Shown piece by piece: positions 35,676 to 44,497 of a DNA stretch of 64,000 nucleotides. The notes under the pieces were generated by a model, which searched no databases, was not told where the DNA came from, and saw nothing but the letters and a program-made list of their open reading frames with translations. How positions within the stretch are numbered: position 1 is the first letter of the stretch; each line of letters begins with the position of its first letter. Origin of the DNA: an uncultured Planctomycetia bacterium. GTDB lineage: Bacteria > Omnitrophota > Gorgyraeia > 2-01-FULL-45-10. The position numbers and the translations under genes are program-made. The DNA lies in assembly GCA_964352425.1 (NCBI GenBank), contig CAYGRZ010000003.1:21077-85076 (forward strand), in the 5' to 3' direction.

Positions 35676-36689
35676 CTACGGCAGCAAAGAAATTCTTGCG
35701 CCGTCGTTGTCCAGGGACTTCTGTGCCCCTTCGAGGACCTTCAGCACCTCTATGCCGTTATCGACATCAGCGAGCGGCTGCCGGTTATGCCTGACGCAAT
35801 TCAGGAACTCCCGGCATTCTATCTTCAGCGGCTCTTCCATCTTAATGGTAGGCGCGAGCACATCGCCGGACCTGAGCGTGAGGAAGGTTTCGTATGAGTT
35901 CCTGTCTACGGTCTTGTCGACGCCCTTGTCGTATATCTTGAGTTTTTCGTCGCTCGACATATCGTCGAAGACGGCCATGCGTTTTGTGCCGACCACGGTA
36001 AGCTGCCGTATCTTATGCGGATCCAACCAGCTGGCGTGGACGTGAGCCATGCAGTCATTCTTGAAATTGAGGCTTAAGAACACGACATCGTGGACGTTCT
36101 TTCGCAGATACGCCTCGCCGCTAGCCGAAACGCTGACAGGATGTTTTCCCAGCAGATACATGATGACGGAGATATCGTGAGACGTGAGGCTCCAGAGCGC
36201 GTTCTCTTCTTTCCTGACCTGGCCGAGGTTGACCCTGGTCGTGTAGATATAGCAGATATCCCCCAGGAATCCGTCGTCGATATACTTTCTTAACGCCACC
36301 ACGGCGGGATGGTACAGCAGGATATGGCCTACCATGCAGATCTTCTTATGCCTGGCCGCGGCCTTCTTTATCTCCAGGCCCTCTTTGACGCTCATGGCAA
36401 GCGGCTTCTCTATAAAAACGTGCTTCCCGCTCTCGATCGCTCTTATGGCAAGCTCTGCGTGAGTATCCGGAAGCGTTGCTATAACGACGGCGCCTATCTC
36501 AGCGTCCTTAAAAATATCCTCCGGATCGGTGGTCTGAGCGATCTCGCCCTTATAGTCGCGCTCAACGCCGTCCAACAGGGCCTTGTTCTTGTCGCAGCAT
36601 ATCTTGACCTTGCAATCACCAAGGTTTGCATAGTTCCTCAGGTGGTTTTTGCCCCATACGCCTATACCTATTTGAGATAATATTATCAT
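35676..36689 (-). CDS. Gfo/Idh/MocA family NAD(P)-dependent oxidoreductase (WbpB-like UDP-sugar 3-dehydrogenase candidate)
   Basis: 337 aa. MIILSQIGIGVWGKNHLRNYANL Rossmann N-terminus and the GKHVFIEKPLA motif. Confidence 0.8.
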   Translation of the reverse strand: MIILSQIGIGVWGKNHLRNYANLGDCKVKICCDKNKALLDGVERDYKGEIAQTTDPEDIFKDAEIGAVVIATLPDTHAELAIRAIESGKHVFIEKPLAMSVKEGLEIKKAAARHKKICMVGHILLYHPAVVALRKYIDDGFLGDICYIYTTRVNLGQVRKEENALWSLTSHDISVIMYLLGKHPVSVSASGEAYLRKNVHDVVFLSLNFKNDCMAHVHASWLDPHKIRQLTVVGTKRMAVFDDMSSDEKLKIYDKGVDKTVDRNSYETFLTLRSGDVLAPTIKMEEPLKIECREFLNCVRHNRQPLADVDNGIEVLKVLEGAQKSLDNDGARISLLP

Positions 36690-36908
36690 GATAGTTATAA
36701 TATAATATTATATAATGCCGGAAAAGTCAACCAAATGAGAGGGCCTTGTCAAGCCAAAATAGAGGGCCTGTTGCGCCGAATAAGTGTTATATGGCATCCG
36801 GTATGGTGTAAAGTATAAGCGCGAGGTTAGATGTCAGGTTATTTGCGAAGTAGACTGAGCTCGGAGAGCGCGATGGCCGGATAGATGAATGTGACTTTCA
36901 CGTCTTTC

Positions 36909-37850
36909 TTATCCGCTGATGGATCTGAAATAGGCTACGGTCCGCTCGAGCCCGGTCGCGAGATCCACCTTCGGCGCCCAGCGCAGAAGCTTCTTCGCCT
37001 TTGTGATGTCCGGACACCGGACCTTGGGATCGTCGACAGGCAGGCCCTCGAACACGATTTTGCTCTTGCTACGGGAAATCTTGATGATCGCATGAGCCAG
37101 CTCAAGCAGCGTCATCTCGTTCGGGTTGCCGATATTCACGGGATAATGCGCGCTTGAGAGGAACAGCTTGTAGATACCGCTGACGAGGTCCGATACGTAA
37201 CAGAAGCTGCGCGTCTGCCGGCCGCTGCCGTAGACAGTAATGGGTCTATTCTTGAGCGCTTGGCCGATAAAGTTCGGTATCGCCCTGCCATCCTCTTCCC
37301 GCATCCTTTCGCCGTATGTATTGAATATGCGCACGATCCTGGTGTCGACGCCGTGGTACCGGTGGTACGCCATCGTCATCGCCTCGGCGAAACGCTTCGC
37401 CTCGTCGTAGACGCCGCGGGGGCCGATGGGATTGACGTTCCCCCAGTATTCCTCGTACTGCGGATTGACCAGCGGATCGCCGTAGACTTCGCTCGTCGAT
37501 GCCAGGAGGAATCGCGCTCTCTTCTCTTTCGCCACGCCCAGGGCGTTATGCGTGCCGAGCGAGCCGACCTTGAGGGTCTGGATGGGAAGCTTGAGATAAT
37601 CGATCGGGCTTGCAGGCGAGGCAAAATGCAGGACATAGTCGACCCGCCCCTTCACGTCGATATACGTCGTGACATTATGCTTGGCGAACTCGAAATCGCG
37701 GTTCTTCAGGTTGTGCCGGATATTCTCCATCTTTCCCGTCAGGAGATTGTCCATACAGATGACGCGATGGCCCTTCGCGAGGAAGAGGTCGCACAGATGG
37801 CTTCCTATGAATCCCGCGCCGCCCGTTATCAATACTGTTTTTTTCGCCAC
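36909..37850 (-). CDS. UDP-glucuronate decarboxylase (UDP-xylose synthase, UXS/ArnA-decarboxylase-like SDR)
   Basis: 313 aa with a GTG start. [18 protein letters not shown]...YDEAKRFAE is a near-canonical UXS signature. Confidence 0.75.
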
Positions 37851-37943
37851 CCCACACCTTCTTATCTTTTAACAATACAAACTATTTTCTTTGCAGCATA
37901 CGCACCCAAACCATTCCCTGTGAAAACAAAAGAAGGTGTGGGG
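37850..37943 (-). repeat. Perfect 14-bp inverted repeat (ccccacaccttctt / aagaaggtgtgggg) bracketing the whole intergenic spacer
   Basis: Arms at 37850..37863 and 37930..37943. One arm abuts the epimerase stop codon and the other contains the SD (AAGAAGG) and the first base of the GTG start of the UXS gene. Confidence 0.7.
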
Positions 37944-38876
37944 TTATTTGTTCCTGAACCACTCGACCGTGCGCGCGAGCCCTTCCTCAAATCCTATTAT
38001 TTTTTTCATCCGCAGCATGCGCTTCATCCTGCTGATATCGGCATACGTCTTGCGCACGTCACCCCGCCTTTTCGGCGCATATTTCGGCTTGATATCCGTC
38101 CCGAGTATTTTGTTAAGCTCATTGACGATGTCAATGACCGATACGGTCGTGCCGCAGGCGACATTGAATACCTCGCCCGATATCCCGGGCACGACACATG
38201 AATTCAGGTTCGCCGCAACGACATTTCCCACGAACGTGAAGTCCCTGGACTGCTTGCCGTCCCATTCGACGATCGGAGACTTGCCCTTCATTATCTCGAA
38301 GAGGAATGCCGGTATGACCGCGGAGTACTTCGACTCCGGATTCTGCCGGGGGCCGAAGACGTTGAAGTAGCGCAGCGAGACCGTCTCGAGACCGAATGTC
38401 CTGGCGAATGTAATGCAGTAATTCTCGGCGGCCAGTTTCGAAACACCGTACGGTGAGATCGGCTTCGGCAGGTCGGTCTCTTTCTGGGGAAAGCTCCTGG
38501 CGTCACCATAGGCAGAACTTGACGAGGCATACACGACCCGTTTTACACCCGCCGCCTTGGCTTCGAATAGGACATTTAACGTACCGTTCACATTAATATC
38601 ATTGGTCGTGAATGGATCATCGACAGATTTCGGGACTGAGCGGAGCGCCGCCTGGTGGATGACGTAGTCGACGCCTCTCAGGGCCTTCCTAAGCGTACTC
38701 CTGTTCCTTATATCCCCCTTAATGAACGTGATCTTTCCCGAAAAAGGCTTCAGGTTCTCCATCTTTCCGGTGATAAGGCTGTCGATAACCCTGACTCTCT
38801 TCTTCCGCCTTACGAGCTCCTCGACGATATTCGAACCTATGAATCCGGCTCCGCCGGTAACGAGATAGTGTGCCAT
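37944..38876 (-). CDS. NAD-dependent sugar epimerase (UDP-GlcNAc/UDP-glucose 4-epimerase-like, WbpP/CapD-like)
   Basis: 310 aa. [21 protein letters not shown] and YGVSKLAAE (YxxxK). Confidence 0.75.
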   Translation of the reverse strand: MAHYLVTGGAGFIGSNIVEELVRRKKRVRVIDSLITGKMENLKPFSGKITFIKGDIRNRSTLRKALRGVDYVIHQAALRSVPKSVDDPFTTNDINVNGTLNVLFEAKAAGVKRVVYASSSSAYGDARSFPQKETDLPKPISPYGVSKLAAENYCITFARTFGLETVSLRYFNVFGPRQNPESKYSAVIPAFLFEIMKGKSPIVEWDGKQSRDFTFVGNVVAANLNSCVVPGISGEVFNVACGTTVSVIDIVNELNKILGTDIKPKYAPKRRGDVRKTYADISRMKRMLRMKKIIGFEEGLARTVEWFRNK

Positions 38877-38878
38877 AG

Positions 38879-41647
38879 TTATAGTTTTATGATGCTCTTC
38901 CTTTCCTTCTGGTTCTTCAGGACGTTCCGCGTATCGACGATCAGTTTCGAATGCTCGACGATAAAATCGTAGTCGACGTCCGTGTGATCGGTCACGATGA
39001 CGACGCAGTCCGCGCCCCTGAACGTTTCTTTATCGAATTTGGCAAGGTCAAGATTGATCTCGCCTATCTTAAGATACGGGAAGAGCGCGTCGTAGTACGA
39101 GACATCGGCGCCCTTATGCATGAGGAACTCTATGATCTCAAGCGCGGGAGACTCGCGCAGGTCCTTCACGTCCTTCTTGTACGCCACGCCGACGACGAGG
39201 ACCTTCGATCCGTTCAGCGCCTTCTTATGGTTGTTCAGGCCTTCGGTCACTTTGGAGACGACATAGTGCGGCATCTCGGAGTTGACCTGGGCGGCGAGGT
39301 CGATGAACCGCGCCTCGAACCCGTACATCCTCGCCTTCCACGAAAGATAGATGGGATCGACGGGTATACAGTTATGCGTCAATACACCGTACGACGTCAC
39401 GAAGGTATTTGTGTCACGCACTTCCATCGAATAAACATTATCCGCGTTCGAACGGGATATGCTCTTTATTTTAACGGCGGCAAAATCTTTATATAGTTTG
39501 AATGACTTGTTTGAAACCACTCGTTTTTTATTCTTAAAGTAAGTCCCTATCTTTTTTGATTTCTCTCCGAGGAATACAGTTTTGAGCATTTTCAACTGCT
39601 CACTGCCGAATATATTGAGCAGATTCTTCCTTTTCTTAAGGGTCGGAACAAACCCGAGGTCCTGCAATAGCAGCAGCACTTGATTAAAGAGAATGTCGCT
39701 TGAGGTGAAATAATTTACCACTGCGGCATTGTTATTGTGGCAATACTTTTTGCCCCTCTTAAAATAAGTCCTTTGCAGGTTTGAGTAATCTACGCCTCCG
39801 TCGCCGCGCAAGATGCCCATGAGGAGATTCAGCTTCAATTCTTTCGGAAAAAGCAGAAACCTGTCCGGTATTTTCATCGCGTAGGAATTGATACCGCATT
39901 TTAAGATATCCCTTAAAAGATATCCAAAAATAGAAGATGATATCTTAATACATGCGCTTTTCCATATCTTTGATTTATATACCGAGTAAGTTATGCCTCT
40001 TTCTTTTAAGAATAAAATGACATCCGTGATATATTCCGTCTCGTTCGAATTAAACGTCAGCCTGGTTCTTATCGAACCATCCAGAGTTATACATCCTTCA
40101 CTTAAATAGTAGCCGATGAATCTGCTGAAATCTTCGTCTATCTCAATAACGGCCGGAACGCTCTGGAATGATGGGCCTCTACCTGTAACTAATAAGAGAT
40201 CTTCCCTATCAACTGCCCAGGACGTCTTCTTCTCTAGCGACAGGTAAACGCTTAATGGTAGAGAGTTGTCCCTTATGTAATCGCGCACCTTATCTTTTTC
40301 AGAAGGCTCAGTATTTTTGTATATAACATCTCTATAGGACGACCATTCAAAGTCTTTGCCTTTCAAGCGGACGCCTTTCACGAGATCGTTATCTCTTAAA
40401 AAATCTATCATATCTATCCGCAAGTCGCTCGATTTTGTCAACGATTTTGGCATGGTAAGAATTACGGGTATCTCATCGTTAATTTCAAGCTCTTCGGCGA
40501 ATTTAACCCCCATAGCGCCGTCTTTCGCGACCATCACCGGATGCTTTGGAGTAACGCAAAATTCACGCCTGTCCGCCAGCATGATATTCAACATATCGCC
40601 TTTATAAGGCCTTTCGGAAAGTATGCCTATCTCCTTAAAACAAGGCTCTGCCTTTACCACATCGTAAGAAAATATTTCTTTCGCATTAGGCCTTATAAAT
40701 GTTGTGCCTCTGAGATCGTGCATTCGGGATTGGGGGTCATCCTTAGACTCCTTAACAAAATCCGATATTTTAATAACTCGTAACTCGCTACCATCCTTCT
40801 CTTTCACGAATATTTGCTCGTCTTTACCAAGGCAGTGCCCACCTACCCCGGGCCCCGGATAGAACGGCATGAAGCCGTAGGGCTTCGTCTTGGCCGCGTC
40901 GATCACTTCCCACACGTCGATCTTGAGCCTGTCGCACATGAGCATGAGCTCGTTCACCATGCCGATATTGACGATCCTGAACGTGTTCTCGAGGAGCTTC
41001 ACCATCTCGGCGACTTTTGCCGACGAGACGGGGACTATCTTCTCAAGCGCCTGCTCGTAGAGGAGCTTCGCCAGGTCCGTAGAGTTCTTCGAAATGCCGC
41101 CGATGATCTTCGGCGTGTTCTTCGTATCATACTTCGGATTACCGGGATCGATGCGCTCGGGTGAGAAGGCAAGATAAAAATCCTTCCCTTCCTTCCAGAG
41201 GTCCTCTTCAAGGATCGGGAGCATAACCTCCTCGGTCGTTCCGGGATACGTCGTGGATTCAAGAACGATTATCTGGCCACGCTTCATGTGCCTCTTTATG
41301 TTCCTGACCGCAGAGACGATGAACGAGACATCCGGCTCTTTCGTCTTATAGAGCGGTGTCGGCACGCAGATGATCACCGCGTCGAGGTCTTTTATTACGC
41401 TGAAATCGGTCGTGACCGCGAGCGACTTGTTCTTCCTGACCAGGATGAGATCCGACTGCTGCACGTCGAGGATGTATGACTCGCCCTTCTGGATCTTTGC
41501 CACCCGGTCCTTGTCGATGTCTATTCCGTGTACCTTAAACCCGCACTTCGCGAATGTCACGGCAAGCGGTAGCCCCACATAGCCGAGGCCGATGATGCCG
41601 ATCTTCGCCTTCTTGCTTGAAATCTTCTTCTTCAGTTCATTTAACAT
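38879..41647 (-). CDS. UDP-N-acetyl-D-hexosamine (ManNAc/GlcNAc) 6-dehydrogenase, WecC/WbpA/Cap5O family, with an intein inserted at the catalytic Cys
   Basis: 922 aa. The N-extein (1-271) has the NAD-binding KIGIIGLGYVGLPLAV motif and ends ...GPGVGGH. The C-extein (760-922) starts CIPVDPIYLSW. Joined, these give the family signature GVGGHCIPVDP. Combined extein length is 434 aa. Confidence 0.8.
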   Translation of the reverse strand: MLNELKKKISSKKAKIGIIGLGYVGLPLAVTFAKCGFKVHGIDIDKDRVAKIQKGESYILDVQQSDLILVRKNKSLAVTTDFSVIKDLDAVIICVPTPLYKTKEPDVSFIVSAVRNIKRHMKRGQIIVLESTTYPGTTEEVMLPILEEDLWKEGKDFYLAFSPERIDPGNPKYDTKNTPKIIGGISKNSTDLAKLLYEQALEKIVPVSSAKVAEMVKLLENTFRIVNIGMVNELMLMCDRLKIDVWEVIDAAKTKPYGFMPFYPGPGVGGHCLGKDEQIFVKEKDGSELRVIKISDFVKESKDDPQSRMHDLRGTTFIRPNAKEIFSYDVVKAEPCFKEIGILSERPYKGDMLNIMLADRREFCVTPKHPVMVAKDGAMGVKFAEELEINDEIPVILTMPKSLTKSSDLRIDMIDFLRDNDLVKGVRLKGKDFEWSSYRDVIYKNTEPSEKDKVRDYIRDNSLPLSVYLSLEKKTSWAVDREDLLLVTGRGPSFQSVPAVIEIDEDFSRFIGYYLSEGCITLDGSIRTRLTFNSNETEYITDVILFLKERGITYSVYKSKIWKSACIKISSSIFGYLLRDILKCGINSYAMKIPDRFLLFPKELKLNLLMGILRGDGGVDYSNLQRTYFKRGKKYCHNNNAAVVNYFTSSDILFNQVLLLLQDLGFVPTLKKRKNLLNIFGSEQLKMLKTVFLGEKSKKIGTYFKNKKRVVSNKSFKLYKDFAAVKIKSISRSNADNVYSMEVRDTNTFVTSYGVLTHNCIPVDPIYLSWKARMYGFEARFIDLAAQVNSEMPHYVVSKVTEGLNNHKKALNGSKVLVVGVAYKKDVKDLRESPALEIIEFLMHKGADVSYYDALFPYLKIGEINLDLAKFDKETFRGADCVVIVTDHTDVDYDFIVEHSKLIVDTRNVLKNQKERKSIIKL
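39371..40834 (-). mobile_element. Intein (488 aa) with LAGLIDADG homing-endonuclease domain
   Basis: It begins with Cys (CLGKDEQIFVKEKDGSELRVI, block A) and has block B TPKHPV. It carries two LAGLIDADG-like motifs (FIGYYLSEGC and LLMGILRGDGG). It ends ...YGVLTHN (blocks F/G) and is followed by the +1 Cys of the extein. Confidence 0.7.
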
Positions 41648-41677: not shown

Positions 41678-41760
41678 TAGAAGCCAACTACGGCTTCCTC
41701 GCAATGACGGTTATTTTAAATAGAAGCCGGTAACAGCTTCCCCGCAATGACGGTTATTTC
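41678..41760 (-). repeat. Tandem duplication of a 40-nt element (hairpin plus conserved 20-mer) overlapping the rmlD stop
   Basis: Copy 1 (41678..41717) is tagaagccaactacggcttcctcgcaatgacggttatttt. Copy 2 (41721..41760) is tagaagccggtaacagcttccccgcaatgacggttatttc. Each has a gaagc/gcttc stem with a variable loop. Confidence 0.6.
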
Positions 41761-42701
41761 GACAAATATTCCTTGAGCGCCGCCTTCCAGCCGCGCATCC
41801 GGTATCCGGTAAATTTCCTGAACTTCGCGTTATCCATGACCGACATCGCCGGCCGCTTCGCGGGCCTCTTCAACTCCGACGACGTGATCGGCGCGACCTT
41901 CGCCTTCGACTTCACTATCTTCAGGATCTGCCTGGCATACTCGAACCACGATACTTTCCCGGAGTTTGATACATGATAAATCCCATAGCCCTTAGCCCTA
42001 AGCTCTTGGCCCTCAGCCCTTAGCCCTTCGCCCTTCGCCCTCAGCCCTTCGCCCTTAGCTATCTTATTGAGCAACGCATGGATCGCCTTCGCCAGATCCT
42101 TCGTATACGTCGGCGAACCGACCTGGTCGTCGACGACCTTCAGCGCCTTCCCGGCCTTCGCCCTGGCCGTGATCGTATCTACAAAATTCTTGCCGCGCTT
42201 GCCGTAGAGCCAGCTTGTGCGCAGGATATAATATTTTTCGAGCGTCTCCTGGACGGCCCTCTCGCCCTTCAGCTTCGAATCGCCATATATGCCCAGCGGC
42301 GCGACCGCGTCGGTCTCTCGATATGGCTTCTTCTTCCTGCCATCGAATACAAAATCGGTGCTGATGTAAATGAGCGCTGCATGGGCATTCTTACATGCAA
42401 GAGCAACGCTCCTCGTCCCCTCGCTATTTACCGCATAAGCCTTGTCAGGATCGAGCTCGCACCCGTCGACATCGGTCCACGCGGCCGCATGCACGACAAG
42501 ATCCGGCCTCGCCTCTTCGATCATATCCGCAACTGCCTTGCCGTCAGTGATATTGCCTTTATAAAACTTGTGTACACTTGACAGCGGGCTGCGGATCACA
42601 TCCAGCCCTGCGAGATCATAGTCAGCGGCGAGTTCACGAGAAAGATCTATCCCGAGCATCCCGCTCGAGCCCGTTATCAATACTTTATATCTTGTCGGCA
42701 T
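41754..42701 (-). CDS. rmlD: dTDP-4-dehydrorhamnose reductase (RmlD) with an internal 3x7-aa repeat insertion
   Basis: YKVLITGSSGMLG, ...HAAAWTDVDGCE and YGDSKLKGE match RmlD. I placed the start at ATG 42699..42701 (MPTRYKVL). The track ORF starts at GTG 42743. The sequence KGEGLRAKGEGLRAEGQELRA is inserted near the C-terminus. Confidence 0.75.
   Translation of the reverse strand: MPTRYKVLITGSSGMLGIDLSRELAADYDLAGLDVIRSPLSSVHKFYKGNITDGKAVADMIEEARPDLVVHAAAWTDVDGCELDPDKAYAVNSEGTRSVALACKNAHAALIYISTDFVFDGRKKKPYRETDAVAPLGIYGDSKLKGERAVQETLEKYYILRTSWLYGKRGKNFVDTITARAKAGKALKVVDDQVGSPTYTKDLAKAIHALLNKIAKGEGLRAKGEGLRAEGQELRAKGYGIYHVSNSGKVSWFEYARQILKIVKSKAKVAPITSSELKRPAKRPAMSVMDNAKFRKFTGYRMRGWKAALKEYLSK
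41986..42060 (-). repeat. In-frame tandem 21-nt repeat (gcccttRgccctYagcYctt-like units) inside rmlD
   Basis: The DNA tagcccttagccctaagctcttggccctcagcccttagcccttcgcccttcgccctcagcccttcgcccttagc encodes KGEGLRA three times on the minus strand. Confidence 0.6.
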
Positions 42702-43657
42702 ACAAGCAACCGGTCCCACCACGCCTTGTTGGACTGATACCACTCAACAGTGAGTTCGAGCGCCGTCCTAAATTCATGCCGCGGCTTCCAGCCCAGAGCG
42801 GAAAGCTTCGATATGTCGAGGGCGTAACGCTTGTCGTGGCCGGGCCTGTCTTTGACATATTCGATGGAGCTTTCGTCCTTGCCGAGGATCTTCAGGAGCG
42901 TATGCGTGAGCTCCATATTCGTGATCTCGCTTCCCGCCCCGATATTGTATATCTCGCCTGCCTTGCCTTTATGCATCACTACGTCGATGGCCTCGCAGTT
43001 ATCGGCCACAAAGAGCCAGTCGCGCACGTTCATTCCGTCGGCATAGAGCGGCACCTTCTTGCCGACCATCAGGTTCGTTATAAAGAGAGGTATAACCTTT
43101 TCCGGGTACTGGTAGGGCCCGAAATTGTTTGAACTGCGGGTTATGATGACCGGTAATTTGAAGGTGACAAAATAGGATCTGGCCAGAAGATCCGCGCCCG
43201 CCTTAGTGGCAGAATATGGGCTGTTGGGTTCAAGCGGATCGCCCTCTTTTGAATAGCCCCGAGCGATGCTGCCGTAGCACTCATCCGTTGAGATTTGTAT
43301 GACCAGCTCGATGCCGGACTTCTTAGCCGCCTCTAAAAGCGTGTAGGTCCCAAAGACGTTCGTCCTGACGAATTCGGACGCGTCCTGTATGGACCTGTCC
43401 ACATGCGATTCGGCCGCGAAGTTGATGATTGAGTCGCAGCCCTTGACAAGCTTCTCGACCGTCTGCTTGTCGGTGATGTCGCCTTTGACGAACCGGTACT
43501 GCCTGTTCTTCTCGACGTCACGCAGGTTCTCCAGATTGCCGCAATAGGTGAGCTTGTCGAGGTTCGTGACGTGATAGTCGGGATATTTTCCGAGGATGTG
43601 CCGGATGAAATTTGACCCTATGAAACCGGCGCCGCCGGTGACGAGAAGTGTCTTCAT
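42677..43657 (-). CDS. rmlB: dTDP-glucose 4,6-dehydratase (RmlB)
   Basis: 326 aa. [22 protein letters not shown], ...ISTDECYG and YSATKAGADLLARSY are all canonical for RmlB. Confidence 0.85.
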   Translation of the reverse strand: MKTLLVTGGAGFIGSNFIRHILGKYPDYHVTNLDKLTYCGNLENLRDVEKNRQYRFVKGDITDKQTVEKLVKGCDSIINFAAESHVDRSIQDASEFVRTNVFGTYTLLEAAKKSGIELVIQISTDECYGSIARGYSKEGDPLEPNSPYSATKAGADLLARSYFVTFKLPVIITRSSNNFGPYQYPEKVIPLFITNLMVGKKVPLYADGMNVRDWLFVADNCEAIDVVMHKGKAGEIYNIGAGSEITNMELTHTLLKILGKDESSIEYVKDRPGHDKRYALDISKLSALGWKPRHEFRTALELTVEWYQSNKAWWDRLLVCRQDIKY

Positions 43658-44402: not shown

Positions 44403-44497
44403 CTATTTCCTCCAGTCATAAAATAGGGGACAGCGCCCTATTTTCCAGTCCTATTTAGAGAAAATAGGGCGCTGTCCCCTATTTTCCCCAGTCATAG
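44403..44497. repeat. Perfect 25-bp palindrome with 16-nt spacer, flanked by 9-bp direct repeats (MITE/REP-like or operator array)
   Basis: Arms at 44420..44444 (aaaataggggacagcgccctatttt) and 44461..44485 (exact reverse complement). Direct repeat ccagtcata at 44412..44420 and 44489..44497. The motif ctattttcc(cc)agtc recurs three times. Confidence 0.7.

Follow-up and report, generated by a model that had tools for sequence, protein, structure and literature searches.

Translational coupling by RNA unfolding has been described for rpmI-rplT of E. coli, for genes VII-IX of phage f1 and for coat-lysis/replicase of phage MS2 (PMC12548453). In these systems the downstream ribosome-binding site (RBS) is locked in an RNA structure, the complementary strand lies where the ribosomes of the upstream open reading frame (ORF) finish, and the stop and start codons show a non-overlapping spacing of tens of nucleotides, which leaves room for a second ribosome. 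A comparable arrangement is predicted for a 64,000-nt stretch of the Omnitrophota contig CAYGRZ010000003.1 (the whole stretch analysed, hereafter the window), where the complete spacer between an SDR epimerase gene and a UDP-glucuronate decarboxylase (UXS)-type SDR gene is bracketed by an inverted repeat whose downstream arm contains the Shine-Dalgarno sequence (SD) of UXS. The known inhibitory strands are located inside the upstream coding sequence and are fully traversed by its ribosomes, whereas that of the window lies entirely 3' of the stop codon and is expected to be covered only in part. Moreover, the window stem is a perfect 15-mer of apparently recent, insertional origin, is not conserved, and its coupling is a prediction. 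According to our reading, to which we give about even credence, a palindromic element resembling a MITE (miniature inverted-repeat transposable element) inserted at an ATGA stop/start overlap and was kept as an RBS lock, throttling UXS and tying it to the translation of the epimerase.

Bacterial MITEs form a second group for comparison; among them, the Correia elements of Neisseria carry promoters and hairpins that are cleaved by RNase III. The window element resembles MITEs in being about 94 nt long and intergenic, in possessing terminal inverted repeats and no ORF beyond one of 10 codons, and in facing an empty site in relatives. Its transcribed hairpin is likewise predicted to affect the neighbouring gene, to which the end of the element would supply the SD and part of the start codon. 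Unlike typical MITEs, it is found as one copy in 64 kb, has no clean target-site duplication (TAA...TG(A/G)), and its 3' arm also stands alone in sister lineages. A small palindromic mobile element had been put forward in the first-pass annotation as one alternative to coupling. That proposal gains from the lineage-specific gain at ATGA and from 12-nt termini common to a family of elements in Patescibacteria, and loses from the single copy in the window and from a family likeness confined to the arms.

Repetitive extragenic palindromic (REP) elements and bacterial interspersed mosaic elements (BIMEs) of enterobacteria are also palindromic, transcribed and situated just after stop codons in operons, and they can modulate the mRNA stability and translation of their neighbours. 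REPs are, however, imperfect palindromes of 20-40 nt with hundreds of copies and a link to REP-associated tyrosine transposases (RAYTs), whereas the window holds one copy with a 66-nt interior and exact 15-bp arms. The same annotation had also considered a REP-type element, an idea that is not supported, as the element occurs once in the window (up to 2 mismatches) and nowhere in about 0.5 Mb of related loci.

The features of the junction and its genes are as follows.

37944..38876, minus strand: SDR epimerase, the upstream gene, of the TviC-like UDP-sugar-uronate 4-epimerase type (ORF call, NCBIfam, homologues)
37946-37944, minus strand: TAA stop codon of the epimerase (sequence)
37930..37944, minus strand: 5' arm (A+CCCCACACCTTCTT), an exact anti-SD, its first base being the third base of the stop codon (sequence, fold)
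37864..37929, minus strand: AU-rich loop of 66 nt with about 33% G+C (sequence)
37849..37863, minus strand: 3' arm (AAGAAGGTGTGGGG+T), made up of the SD, a 6-nt spacer and the leading GT of the GTG (sequence, fold)
37863-37857, minus strand: SD AAGAAGG (sequence)
37850-37848, minus strand: GTG start codon of UXS (sequence, ORF call)
36909..37850, minus strand: UDP-glucuronate decarboxylase (UXS)-type SDR, the downstream gene (ORF call; N-terminus aligned with orthologues)
38879..41647, minus strand: nucleotide-sugar dehydrogenase, first gene of a conserved three-gene module (domain search)

On the minus strand the junction reads ...TTC AGG AAC AAA TAA / CCCCACACCTTCTT / 66 nt / AAGAAGGTGTGGG G / TG GCG AAA AAA ACA..., in which CCCCACACCTTCTT (37943-37930) and AAGAAGGTGTGGGG (37863-37850) are exact reverse complements. 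The first-pass annotation gave a perfect repeat of 14 bp across the whole spacer (37850-37943). The repeat is there, with one additional pair between the T of the UXS GTG and the final A of the epimerase TAA, which brings the perfect pairing to 15 bp (37849-37863 / 37930-37944). The remaining elements of that description, namely the 66-nt loop, the SD-like AAGAAGG, the 6-nt spacer, the first G of the GTG and the coordinates, all match the sequence, and the ORF calls agree on the epimerase stop at 37944 and the UXS GTG at 37850. An in-frame TAA is located 21 nt 5' of this GTG and makes an earlier start of UXS impossible. Beyond the perfect stem, the inverted repeat stretches imperfectly to 26 nt at 88% complementarity. 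The element spans 94 nt (94-96 nt in total) with 15-bp terminal inverted repeats, and its sole ORF has 10 codons. This mini-ORF lies in the loop (37882-37914, minus strand; AUG GUU UGG GUG CGU AUG CUG CAA AGA AAA UAG), is preceded by AGGGA with nearly zero spacing, and is probably not translated.

A search for further copies of the 14-mer, as proposed in the annotation, covered the 64-kb window and returned only the two arms, even with up to 2 mismatches allowed. Two loci of the window, the present one and 44420-44485, contain a perfect inverted repeat of at least 14 bp with a loop of at most 100 nt. First-order Markov simulations of the window (n = 100) gave 0.09 such repeats on average. Any repeat of this kind occurred in 5% of the simulated windows, which is what a chance origin could draw on; a 15-bp repeat placed exactly between stop and start, absent in all relatives and folding with a z-score of -3.5, makes chance the most remote of the explanations that we weighed. 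No Rfam model overlapped 37849-37944 when 36000-40000 was scanned at E <= 10.

The second locus, 44420-44485, is a perfect inverted repeat with a 26-bp stem and a 14-nt loop. Its 5' arm holds the TAG stop (44481-44479) of a 148-aa RmlC-like ORF, and about 20 nt separate the end of its 3' arm from the ATG (44399) of a thymidylyltransferase-like gene. With its layout of A-tract, GC-stem and U-tract it looks like a bidirectional intrinsic terminator, and it gives the cluster a second hairpin with a stop codon at its beginning.

That an intrinsic terminator or attenuator separates the epimerase gene from UXS is very improbable. The stem is strong and is followed on the plus strand by TTATTTGTT, but the tail in the sense direction is GGCGAAAAAAAC, without a U tract, the 66-nt loop is far beyond terminator geometry, and a terminator scan was empty here. 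An intrinsic terminator was accordingly excluded on its geometry and the absent U tract.

The RNA of 37830-37960 (minus strand) folds with a minimum free energy of -38.3 kcal/mol (z = -3.47), a stability reached by 0 of 200 shuffles. In this fold, a check of the kind that the annotation had named for its proposal, the arms form the closing stem and the SD is paired. Partition-function folding of a 279-nt mRNA segment gave a probability of being unpaired of <= 0.004 at SD positions 2-7, of 0 in the spacer between SD and start, and of <= 0.025 for the SD together with bases 1 and 2 of the start codon. The duplex energy of the arms is -27.3 kcal/mol. The opening energy of the translation-initiation region, computed for positions -15 to +4, is 15.1 kcal/mol for UXS and is the highest among 55 ORF starts in the window (median 6.5 kcal/mol); the second-highest value, 14.3 kcal/mol, belongs to a doubtful TTG call. 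For the orthologous UXS starts of related loci, the opening energies are 6.1 (L122), 7.5 (L116), 3.7 (L118) and 5.7 kcal/mol (L115). As the value of the window is far above those of its relatives, initiation of UXS by free 30S subunits should, according to these models, be strongly repressed here relative to the relatives. The unpaired probabilities, the duplex energy and the opening energy together demonstrate the RBS lock in silico, in agreement with the sequestration suggested by the annotation.

Syntenic epimerase-UXS junctions were gathered from metagenome and assembly contigs. An identical copy of the locus is present on a Logan contig (L001). Nine loci show an ATGA stop/start overlap at the sequence level (L037, L038, L039, L087, L112, L115, L117, L118 and L119), and a 4-nt overlap follows from the gene coordinates in four more (L124, L125, L126 and the P0124 contig), so that about 13 related Omnitrophota loci have the overlap and no spacer. 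L035 and L056 contain short spacers of unrelated sequence, and L123 contains none. The inverted repeat was not found in the related Omnitrophota loci searched (about 0.5 Mb).

Two loci carry part of the spacer. The junction of L122 reads TAA-CGAAC-AAGAAGGTGTGGG-GTG AGA AAA AAA and that of L116 reads TAA-CGAAC-AAGAAGGTGCGGT-GTG AGA AAA AAA; both spacers are about 18-19 nt long and consist of the 3' arm only, with exposed SD and GTG. The 3' arm of the window is identical to that of L122 at 14/14 positions and to that of L116 at 12/14, with equal spacing and an equal GTG start, which makes this arm the native translation-initiation region of the clade. Neither the 5' arm nor the loop occurs in L116 and L122, and among the loci compared both are restricted to the window. 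In neighbour-joining trees of the epimerase, of UXS and of their concatenation, L116 is the sister of the window; L116 and L122, whose epimerases share 94% identity, are most closely related to one another. These comparisons show the spacer to be a derived, lineage-specific feature. The clade formed by the window, L116 and L122 can be queried at the DNA level with the pattern TGGTTC-N9-TAA...AAGAAGGTG.

Fourfold-degenerate sites of the window are 47-60% identical to those of L122/L116 (40-53% diverged), and both arms of the window are unchanged, with 15/15 positions paired. Intact arms despite such divergence point to either constraint on the stem or, under the alternative history considered below, a recent origin; we take them to argue for constraint acting on the stem. 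The repeat itself is real, non-random and lineage-specific.

The spacers of the sister loci (L116:2799-2816 and L122:1040-1057), with the sequence CGAACAAG-AAGGTG(C/T)G, are a circular permutation of the terminal repeat GGAAGGTGCGAACAAG of the IS5 group, possibly by coincidence. GGAAGGTGCGAACAAG is the left inverted repeat of the IS5-group element ISKpn26 (PMC10569121). A simple IS5-derived MITE was tried as a source, given the resemblance of the arm and the permuted L116/L122 spacer (CGAACAAG-AAGGTGCG) to this repeat, and was rejected for its wrong polarity: the motif faces outward, not inward, at the element ends.

Elements with the same termini exist outside Omnitrophota. A scan of one genome per GTDB species with the pattern CCCCACACCTTC-N55-85-GAAGGTGTGGGG gave 33 loci (L002-L034), the expectation in random sequence being about 0.1 by our own calculation. 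Thirty of these form a recognisable family, nearly all in Patescibacteria (Saccharibacteria, Falkow-, Nomura-, Kuenen-, Lipton- and Kerfeldbacteria, and Sungiibacteriota). The members share a common interior and are 84-105 nt long, mostly 99 nt, with the termini (T)CCCCACACCTTC / GAAGGTGTGGGG(A). One Saccharibacteria metagenome-assembled genome harbours as many as eight copies that are nearly identical. Three examples are given here.

L010:1731-1829, member of the Patescibacterial family
L022:5384-5482, member of the Patescibacterial family
L012:1451-1549, member of the Patescibacterial family

In 28 of the 33 scan matches the unit N-CCCC...GGGG-N' is flanked by identical 4-nt direct repeats (TAAA in 23, TTTA in 5), which look like target-site duplications. 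An RNAalifold consensus of the family mixed two internal hairpins, so a hand-drawn four-helix structure supported by pair counts was used instead. In this structure 89% of cells are paired, compared with about 50% when the partners are slid, and double changes occur in 14 pairs versus 7.8 in shuffles, with the covariation located in the internal hairpins. L014 is a truncated copy, and the existence of such copies makes an internal loss in the window clade plausible. L003, L013 and L033 were rejected as members, being long unrelated palindromes with the 12-mers in internal position; they were taken as chance, and they indicate that chance 12-mer matches inside hairpins do occur.

Rfam at gathering score detected only tRNAs in ten element-bearing Patescibacterial loci. 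The literature searched on MITEs in Patescibacteria or the Candidate Phyla Radiation contained nothing relevant, and literature string searches for both arms gave eukaryotic primer matches only. In addition, the two-arm pattern had 0 matches in IMG/VR viral contigs, and neither the PLSDB plasmids nor the INPHARED phages contained a blastn match to the window element. The family with CCCCACACCTTC/GAAGGTGTGGGG termini is thus absent from Rfam and from the literature searched, and represents a candidate new family of MITEs or structured elements of about 99 nt.

The arms of the window element are identical to the termini of this family (model R1) over 12 nt at both ends and over 14 nt with L004 and L019, some members sharing CCCCACACCTTCTT. 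The length of 94 nt falls among the 84-105 nt of the family, and a position right after TAA is often common to both. Members differ from the window element in their TAAA/TTTA flanks, their T...A extension and their three covarying internal hairpins, none of which the window element has, and its host belongs to another phylum, Omnitrophota. Termini, size and post-stop position agree while two defining features fail, and the link is therefore a serious lead, not membership. The window element is not a demonstrated member.

We propose the following origin, which is the most economical one and involves a single insertion. A palindromic MITE-like element (CCCC...GGGG) would have entered A/TGA in the lineage from which the window, L116 and L122 descend. 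The epimerase would have kept the left TGA (now TAA) as its stop, a GTG start would have arisen from the terminal G of the element and the old TG, and the SD and spacer of UXS would derive from the element's right terminus (AAGAAGG-TGTGGG). The ancestor of L116 and L122 would later have shed the 5' arm and the interior, leaving the solo arm as an ordinary exposed RBS, and the window lineage would have retained both arms in perfect complementarity. Palindromes usually decay through the loss of one arm. The epimerase is unchanged in length and stops at the same codon (TGA to TAA). L116 and L122 still contain G-TGA-G after the arm, from which we infer that the TGA was duplicated at insertion and that the GTG consists of the element's G plus TG. 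The putative target duplication is not exact: to the left of the element stands TAA, to its right TGG in the window and TGA in L116/L122. A doubled TGA of the ancestral ATGA would nevertheless be compatible with these flanks. The empty site is seen as the ATGA overlap in about 13 relatives, and the element has terminal inverted repeats, a small size and no coding capacity.

In the operon mRNA, the 15-bp stem (about -27 kcal/mol) would hide the SD and the start codon, and a free 30S subunit could not initiate. Initiation of UXS would need transient opening of the stem, for which the likeliest opener is the ribosome at the epimerase stop, abutting the 5' arm, and the AU-rich 66-nt loop could act as a standby site. 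The net effect would be to throttle the output of UXS and to tie it to translation of the epimerase, in place of the ancestral ATGA coupling, and thereby to set the proportion between the two enzymes, both of which probably use the product of the dehydrogenase. The locus is best described as a probably inserted palindrome whose right end is the RBS of UXS and whose left end is its exact anti-SD, which merges the coupling and the mobile-element readings of the first-pass annotation. Translational coupling, the MITE origin and the tie to the Patescibacterial family are what we infer from these observations.

Several results weigh against this reading, the first of them concerning the origin. The window element is flanked by AATA and GGCG, not by TAAA/TTTA. 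With the covariance model of the family, its two strands reach 33.2 and 31.9 bits; the 26 members that the scan recovered score 54-117 bits and true members read on the wrong strand score 29-36 bits, so the window element matches the family by its arms alone. Local alignment of the loop to every family interior revealed no significant similarity (best family member L019, z = 2.1; overall top L003, one of the unrelated palindromes, z = 3.3). The element is a single copy in 64 kb, where the covariance model found no further or degenerate family copies, and none is present in the roughly 0.5 Mb of related Omnitrophota loci.

The order of events could also have been different, with a spacer of about 19 nt first and the 5' arm and loop later. 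According to this possible but less probable history, the clade gained a short spacer with SD and GTG, and the window later acquired the 5' arm and loop (about 76 nt), for instance through a template-switch inverted duplication of the SD region plus filler, the Patescibacterial match being a coincidence. Such a history fits the 3' arm as the native orthologous initiation region of the clade and the absence of family flanks and interior, a recent gain would explain the perfect arms without selection, and L003, L013 and L033 illustrate chance 12-mer matches. It requires, however, two separate insertions at one nucleotide, and a donor of the loop was found neither locally nor remotely: a search of the window and all 125 fetched loci for the source of the 66 nt gave only chance 10-14-mers. 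It also leaves unexplained the exact 12+12 terminal identity with a multi-copy family. Furthermore, the spacer of about 18-19 nt is flanked by TAA...TGA, as a transposition product would be, and palindromes typically lose one arm, which is the state of L116/L122. On the sequences compared, insertion first would be the favoured history and the short spacer first a distinctly less probable one.

The remaining objections concern coupling. To represent a terminating ribosome, nucleotides from the epimerase stop were forced to be single-stranded. Coverage to +9 from the first base of the stop keeps the SD paired (P unpaired 0.05), and coverage to +11, +13 or +15 frees it (P unpaired 0.76-0.87). The boundaries of the ribosome footprint fall in just this range and the helicase point is nearer, so that a terminating ribosome could bring about coupling, though only marginally. 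The whole 5' arm is located 3' of the stop codon, and the helicase boundary of the ribosome, about +11 from the P site, implies that only about 5 bp would be opened at termination. Moreover, the distance of 93 nt between stop and start is long for coupling of the scanning type. The pairing is not conserved: the 5' arm is missing from L116 and L122, and the outgroups show an ATGA overlap instead. The lock appears dispensable because the sister lineages manage without that arm. In one screen, structure right after the upstream stop correlated negatively with coupling efficiency, and rpmI-rplT (+52 nt) and phage f1 VII-IX are precedents for coupling by RNA unfolding (PMC12548453). Modelled in this way, coupling of UXS through the ribosome that ends the epimerase is plausible but marginal.

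The loop also contains a weak sigma-70-like match (TTCACA-18-TATGCT, 37924-37895; 9/12), a further point against the lock, as a promoter there could yield a transcript without the 5' arm. Together with the MITE-like features, the Patescibacterial family and the loss of the 5' arm in the sister lineage without apparent harm, this hexamer pair would suit a relic left by a mobile palindrome, neutral or slightly deleterious and without a part in regulation, with UXS expressed through breathing of the stem or from the loop promoter. We consider such a relic rather unlikely: the arms are unchanged and fully paired despite 40-53% divergence from the sisters at fourfold sites, a stem of -27 kcal/mol over the SD would hardly leave expression unaffected, and the promoter match is weak, promoter-type matches being enriched only about 2-fold over shuffles.

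A role in mRNA processing or stability is somewhat less likely again. The near-perfect helix of about 24 bp would then be an RNase III site or a barrier to 3'-exonucleases that splits the fates of the dehydrogenase-epimerase and UXS mRNAs; cleavage would unmask the SD, and a stem at the stop could stall ribosomes and lower the output of the epimerase. Liang, Rudd and Deutscher reportedly found in 2015 that REP elements within 15 nt of stop codons cause ribosome stalling and lower output. The extent of the helix (15 bp perfect, 26 nt at 88% complementarity), its beginning at the stop codon and the presence in the same cluster of the hairpin 44420-44485, which also begins at a stop codon, are consistent with such a role, but the helix is not conserved in relatives.

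The minus strand carries all three genes of the module; 2 nt separate the end of the dehydrogenase from the start of the epimerase, and the order dehydrogenase-epimerase-UXS is also kept in L115, L116 and L117. TviC is the best NCBIfam match of the epimerase (E = 6e-69, with a score under the curated cut-off), and the nearest homologues of this protein belong to Candidatus Omnitrophota. Name-bearing homologues of both the epimerase and UXS are annotated as Candidatus Omnitrophota/Omnitrophica. The dehydrogenase of the window (38879-41647, minus strand) has 922 aa, its length being due to an intein, and the orthologues of L116 and L117 have 434 aa without intein. The intein was recognised from matches to the N- and C-terminal splicing regions and from the likeness to intein-containing archaeal proteins.

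UXS is followed by a 219-nt gap with AT-rich palindromes (ATAATATTAT repeats), a 23-nt tandem duplication, one weak terminator-like hairpin and, on both strands, several sigma-70-like matches (36672-36769). This gap is probably an operon boundary with the promoter of the downstream Gfo/Idh/MocA gene. On the other side of the module, an RmlD-like ORF (41754-42743) includes an imperfect heptanucleotide array (CCCTTAG x 11, 78% matches; 41982-42059) that encodes GEGLRAKGEGLRAEGQELRAKG; with a period of 7 nt, slippage could shift the reading frame. The G+C of the window (1-64000) is about 0.38-0.45 over its first 12 kb, climbs to 0.55-0.61 over its last 20 kb and is about 0.49-0.53 in the polysaccharide cluster; the GC skew is negative nearly throughout. 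The uneven composition may reflect horizontally acquired blocks.

A wider version of the proposal, which we advance only tentatively, is that a small palindromic element with CCCCACACCTTC/GAAGGTGTGGGG termini, abundant in Patescibacteria and crossing phyla, inserted into the ATGA and provided the stop context, SD, GTG and anti-SD at once, one lineage keeping it under selection as a lock and coupler and another trimming it to an RBS. If so, a MITE would here have delivered a riboregulator as a natural 'plug-in'. RBS-sequestering intercistronic hairpins and MITE-derived expression signals are known kinds. The proposed history would place three natural states at one locus, the 4-nt overlap, the full palindrome and the solo-arm RBS, and would document a stepwise swap of overlap-based coupling for structure-based control, with the SD and start donated by a mobile palindrome. 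Since the inhibitory strand lies entirely 3' of the stop, unfolding by terminating and by elongating ribosomes becomes separable, which bears on the disputed RNA-unfolding model. The three-state series and the element family are the parts that most deserve attention, the latter as a candidate in Patescibacterial genomes, which are usually held to be poor in mobile DNA. For the host itself, the ratio of UXS to epimerase, and with it the split of UDP-uronate into two branches of cell-surface sugars, would differ among near-identical gene clusters.

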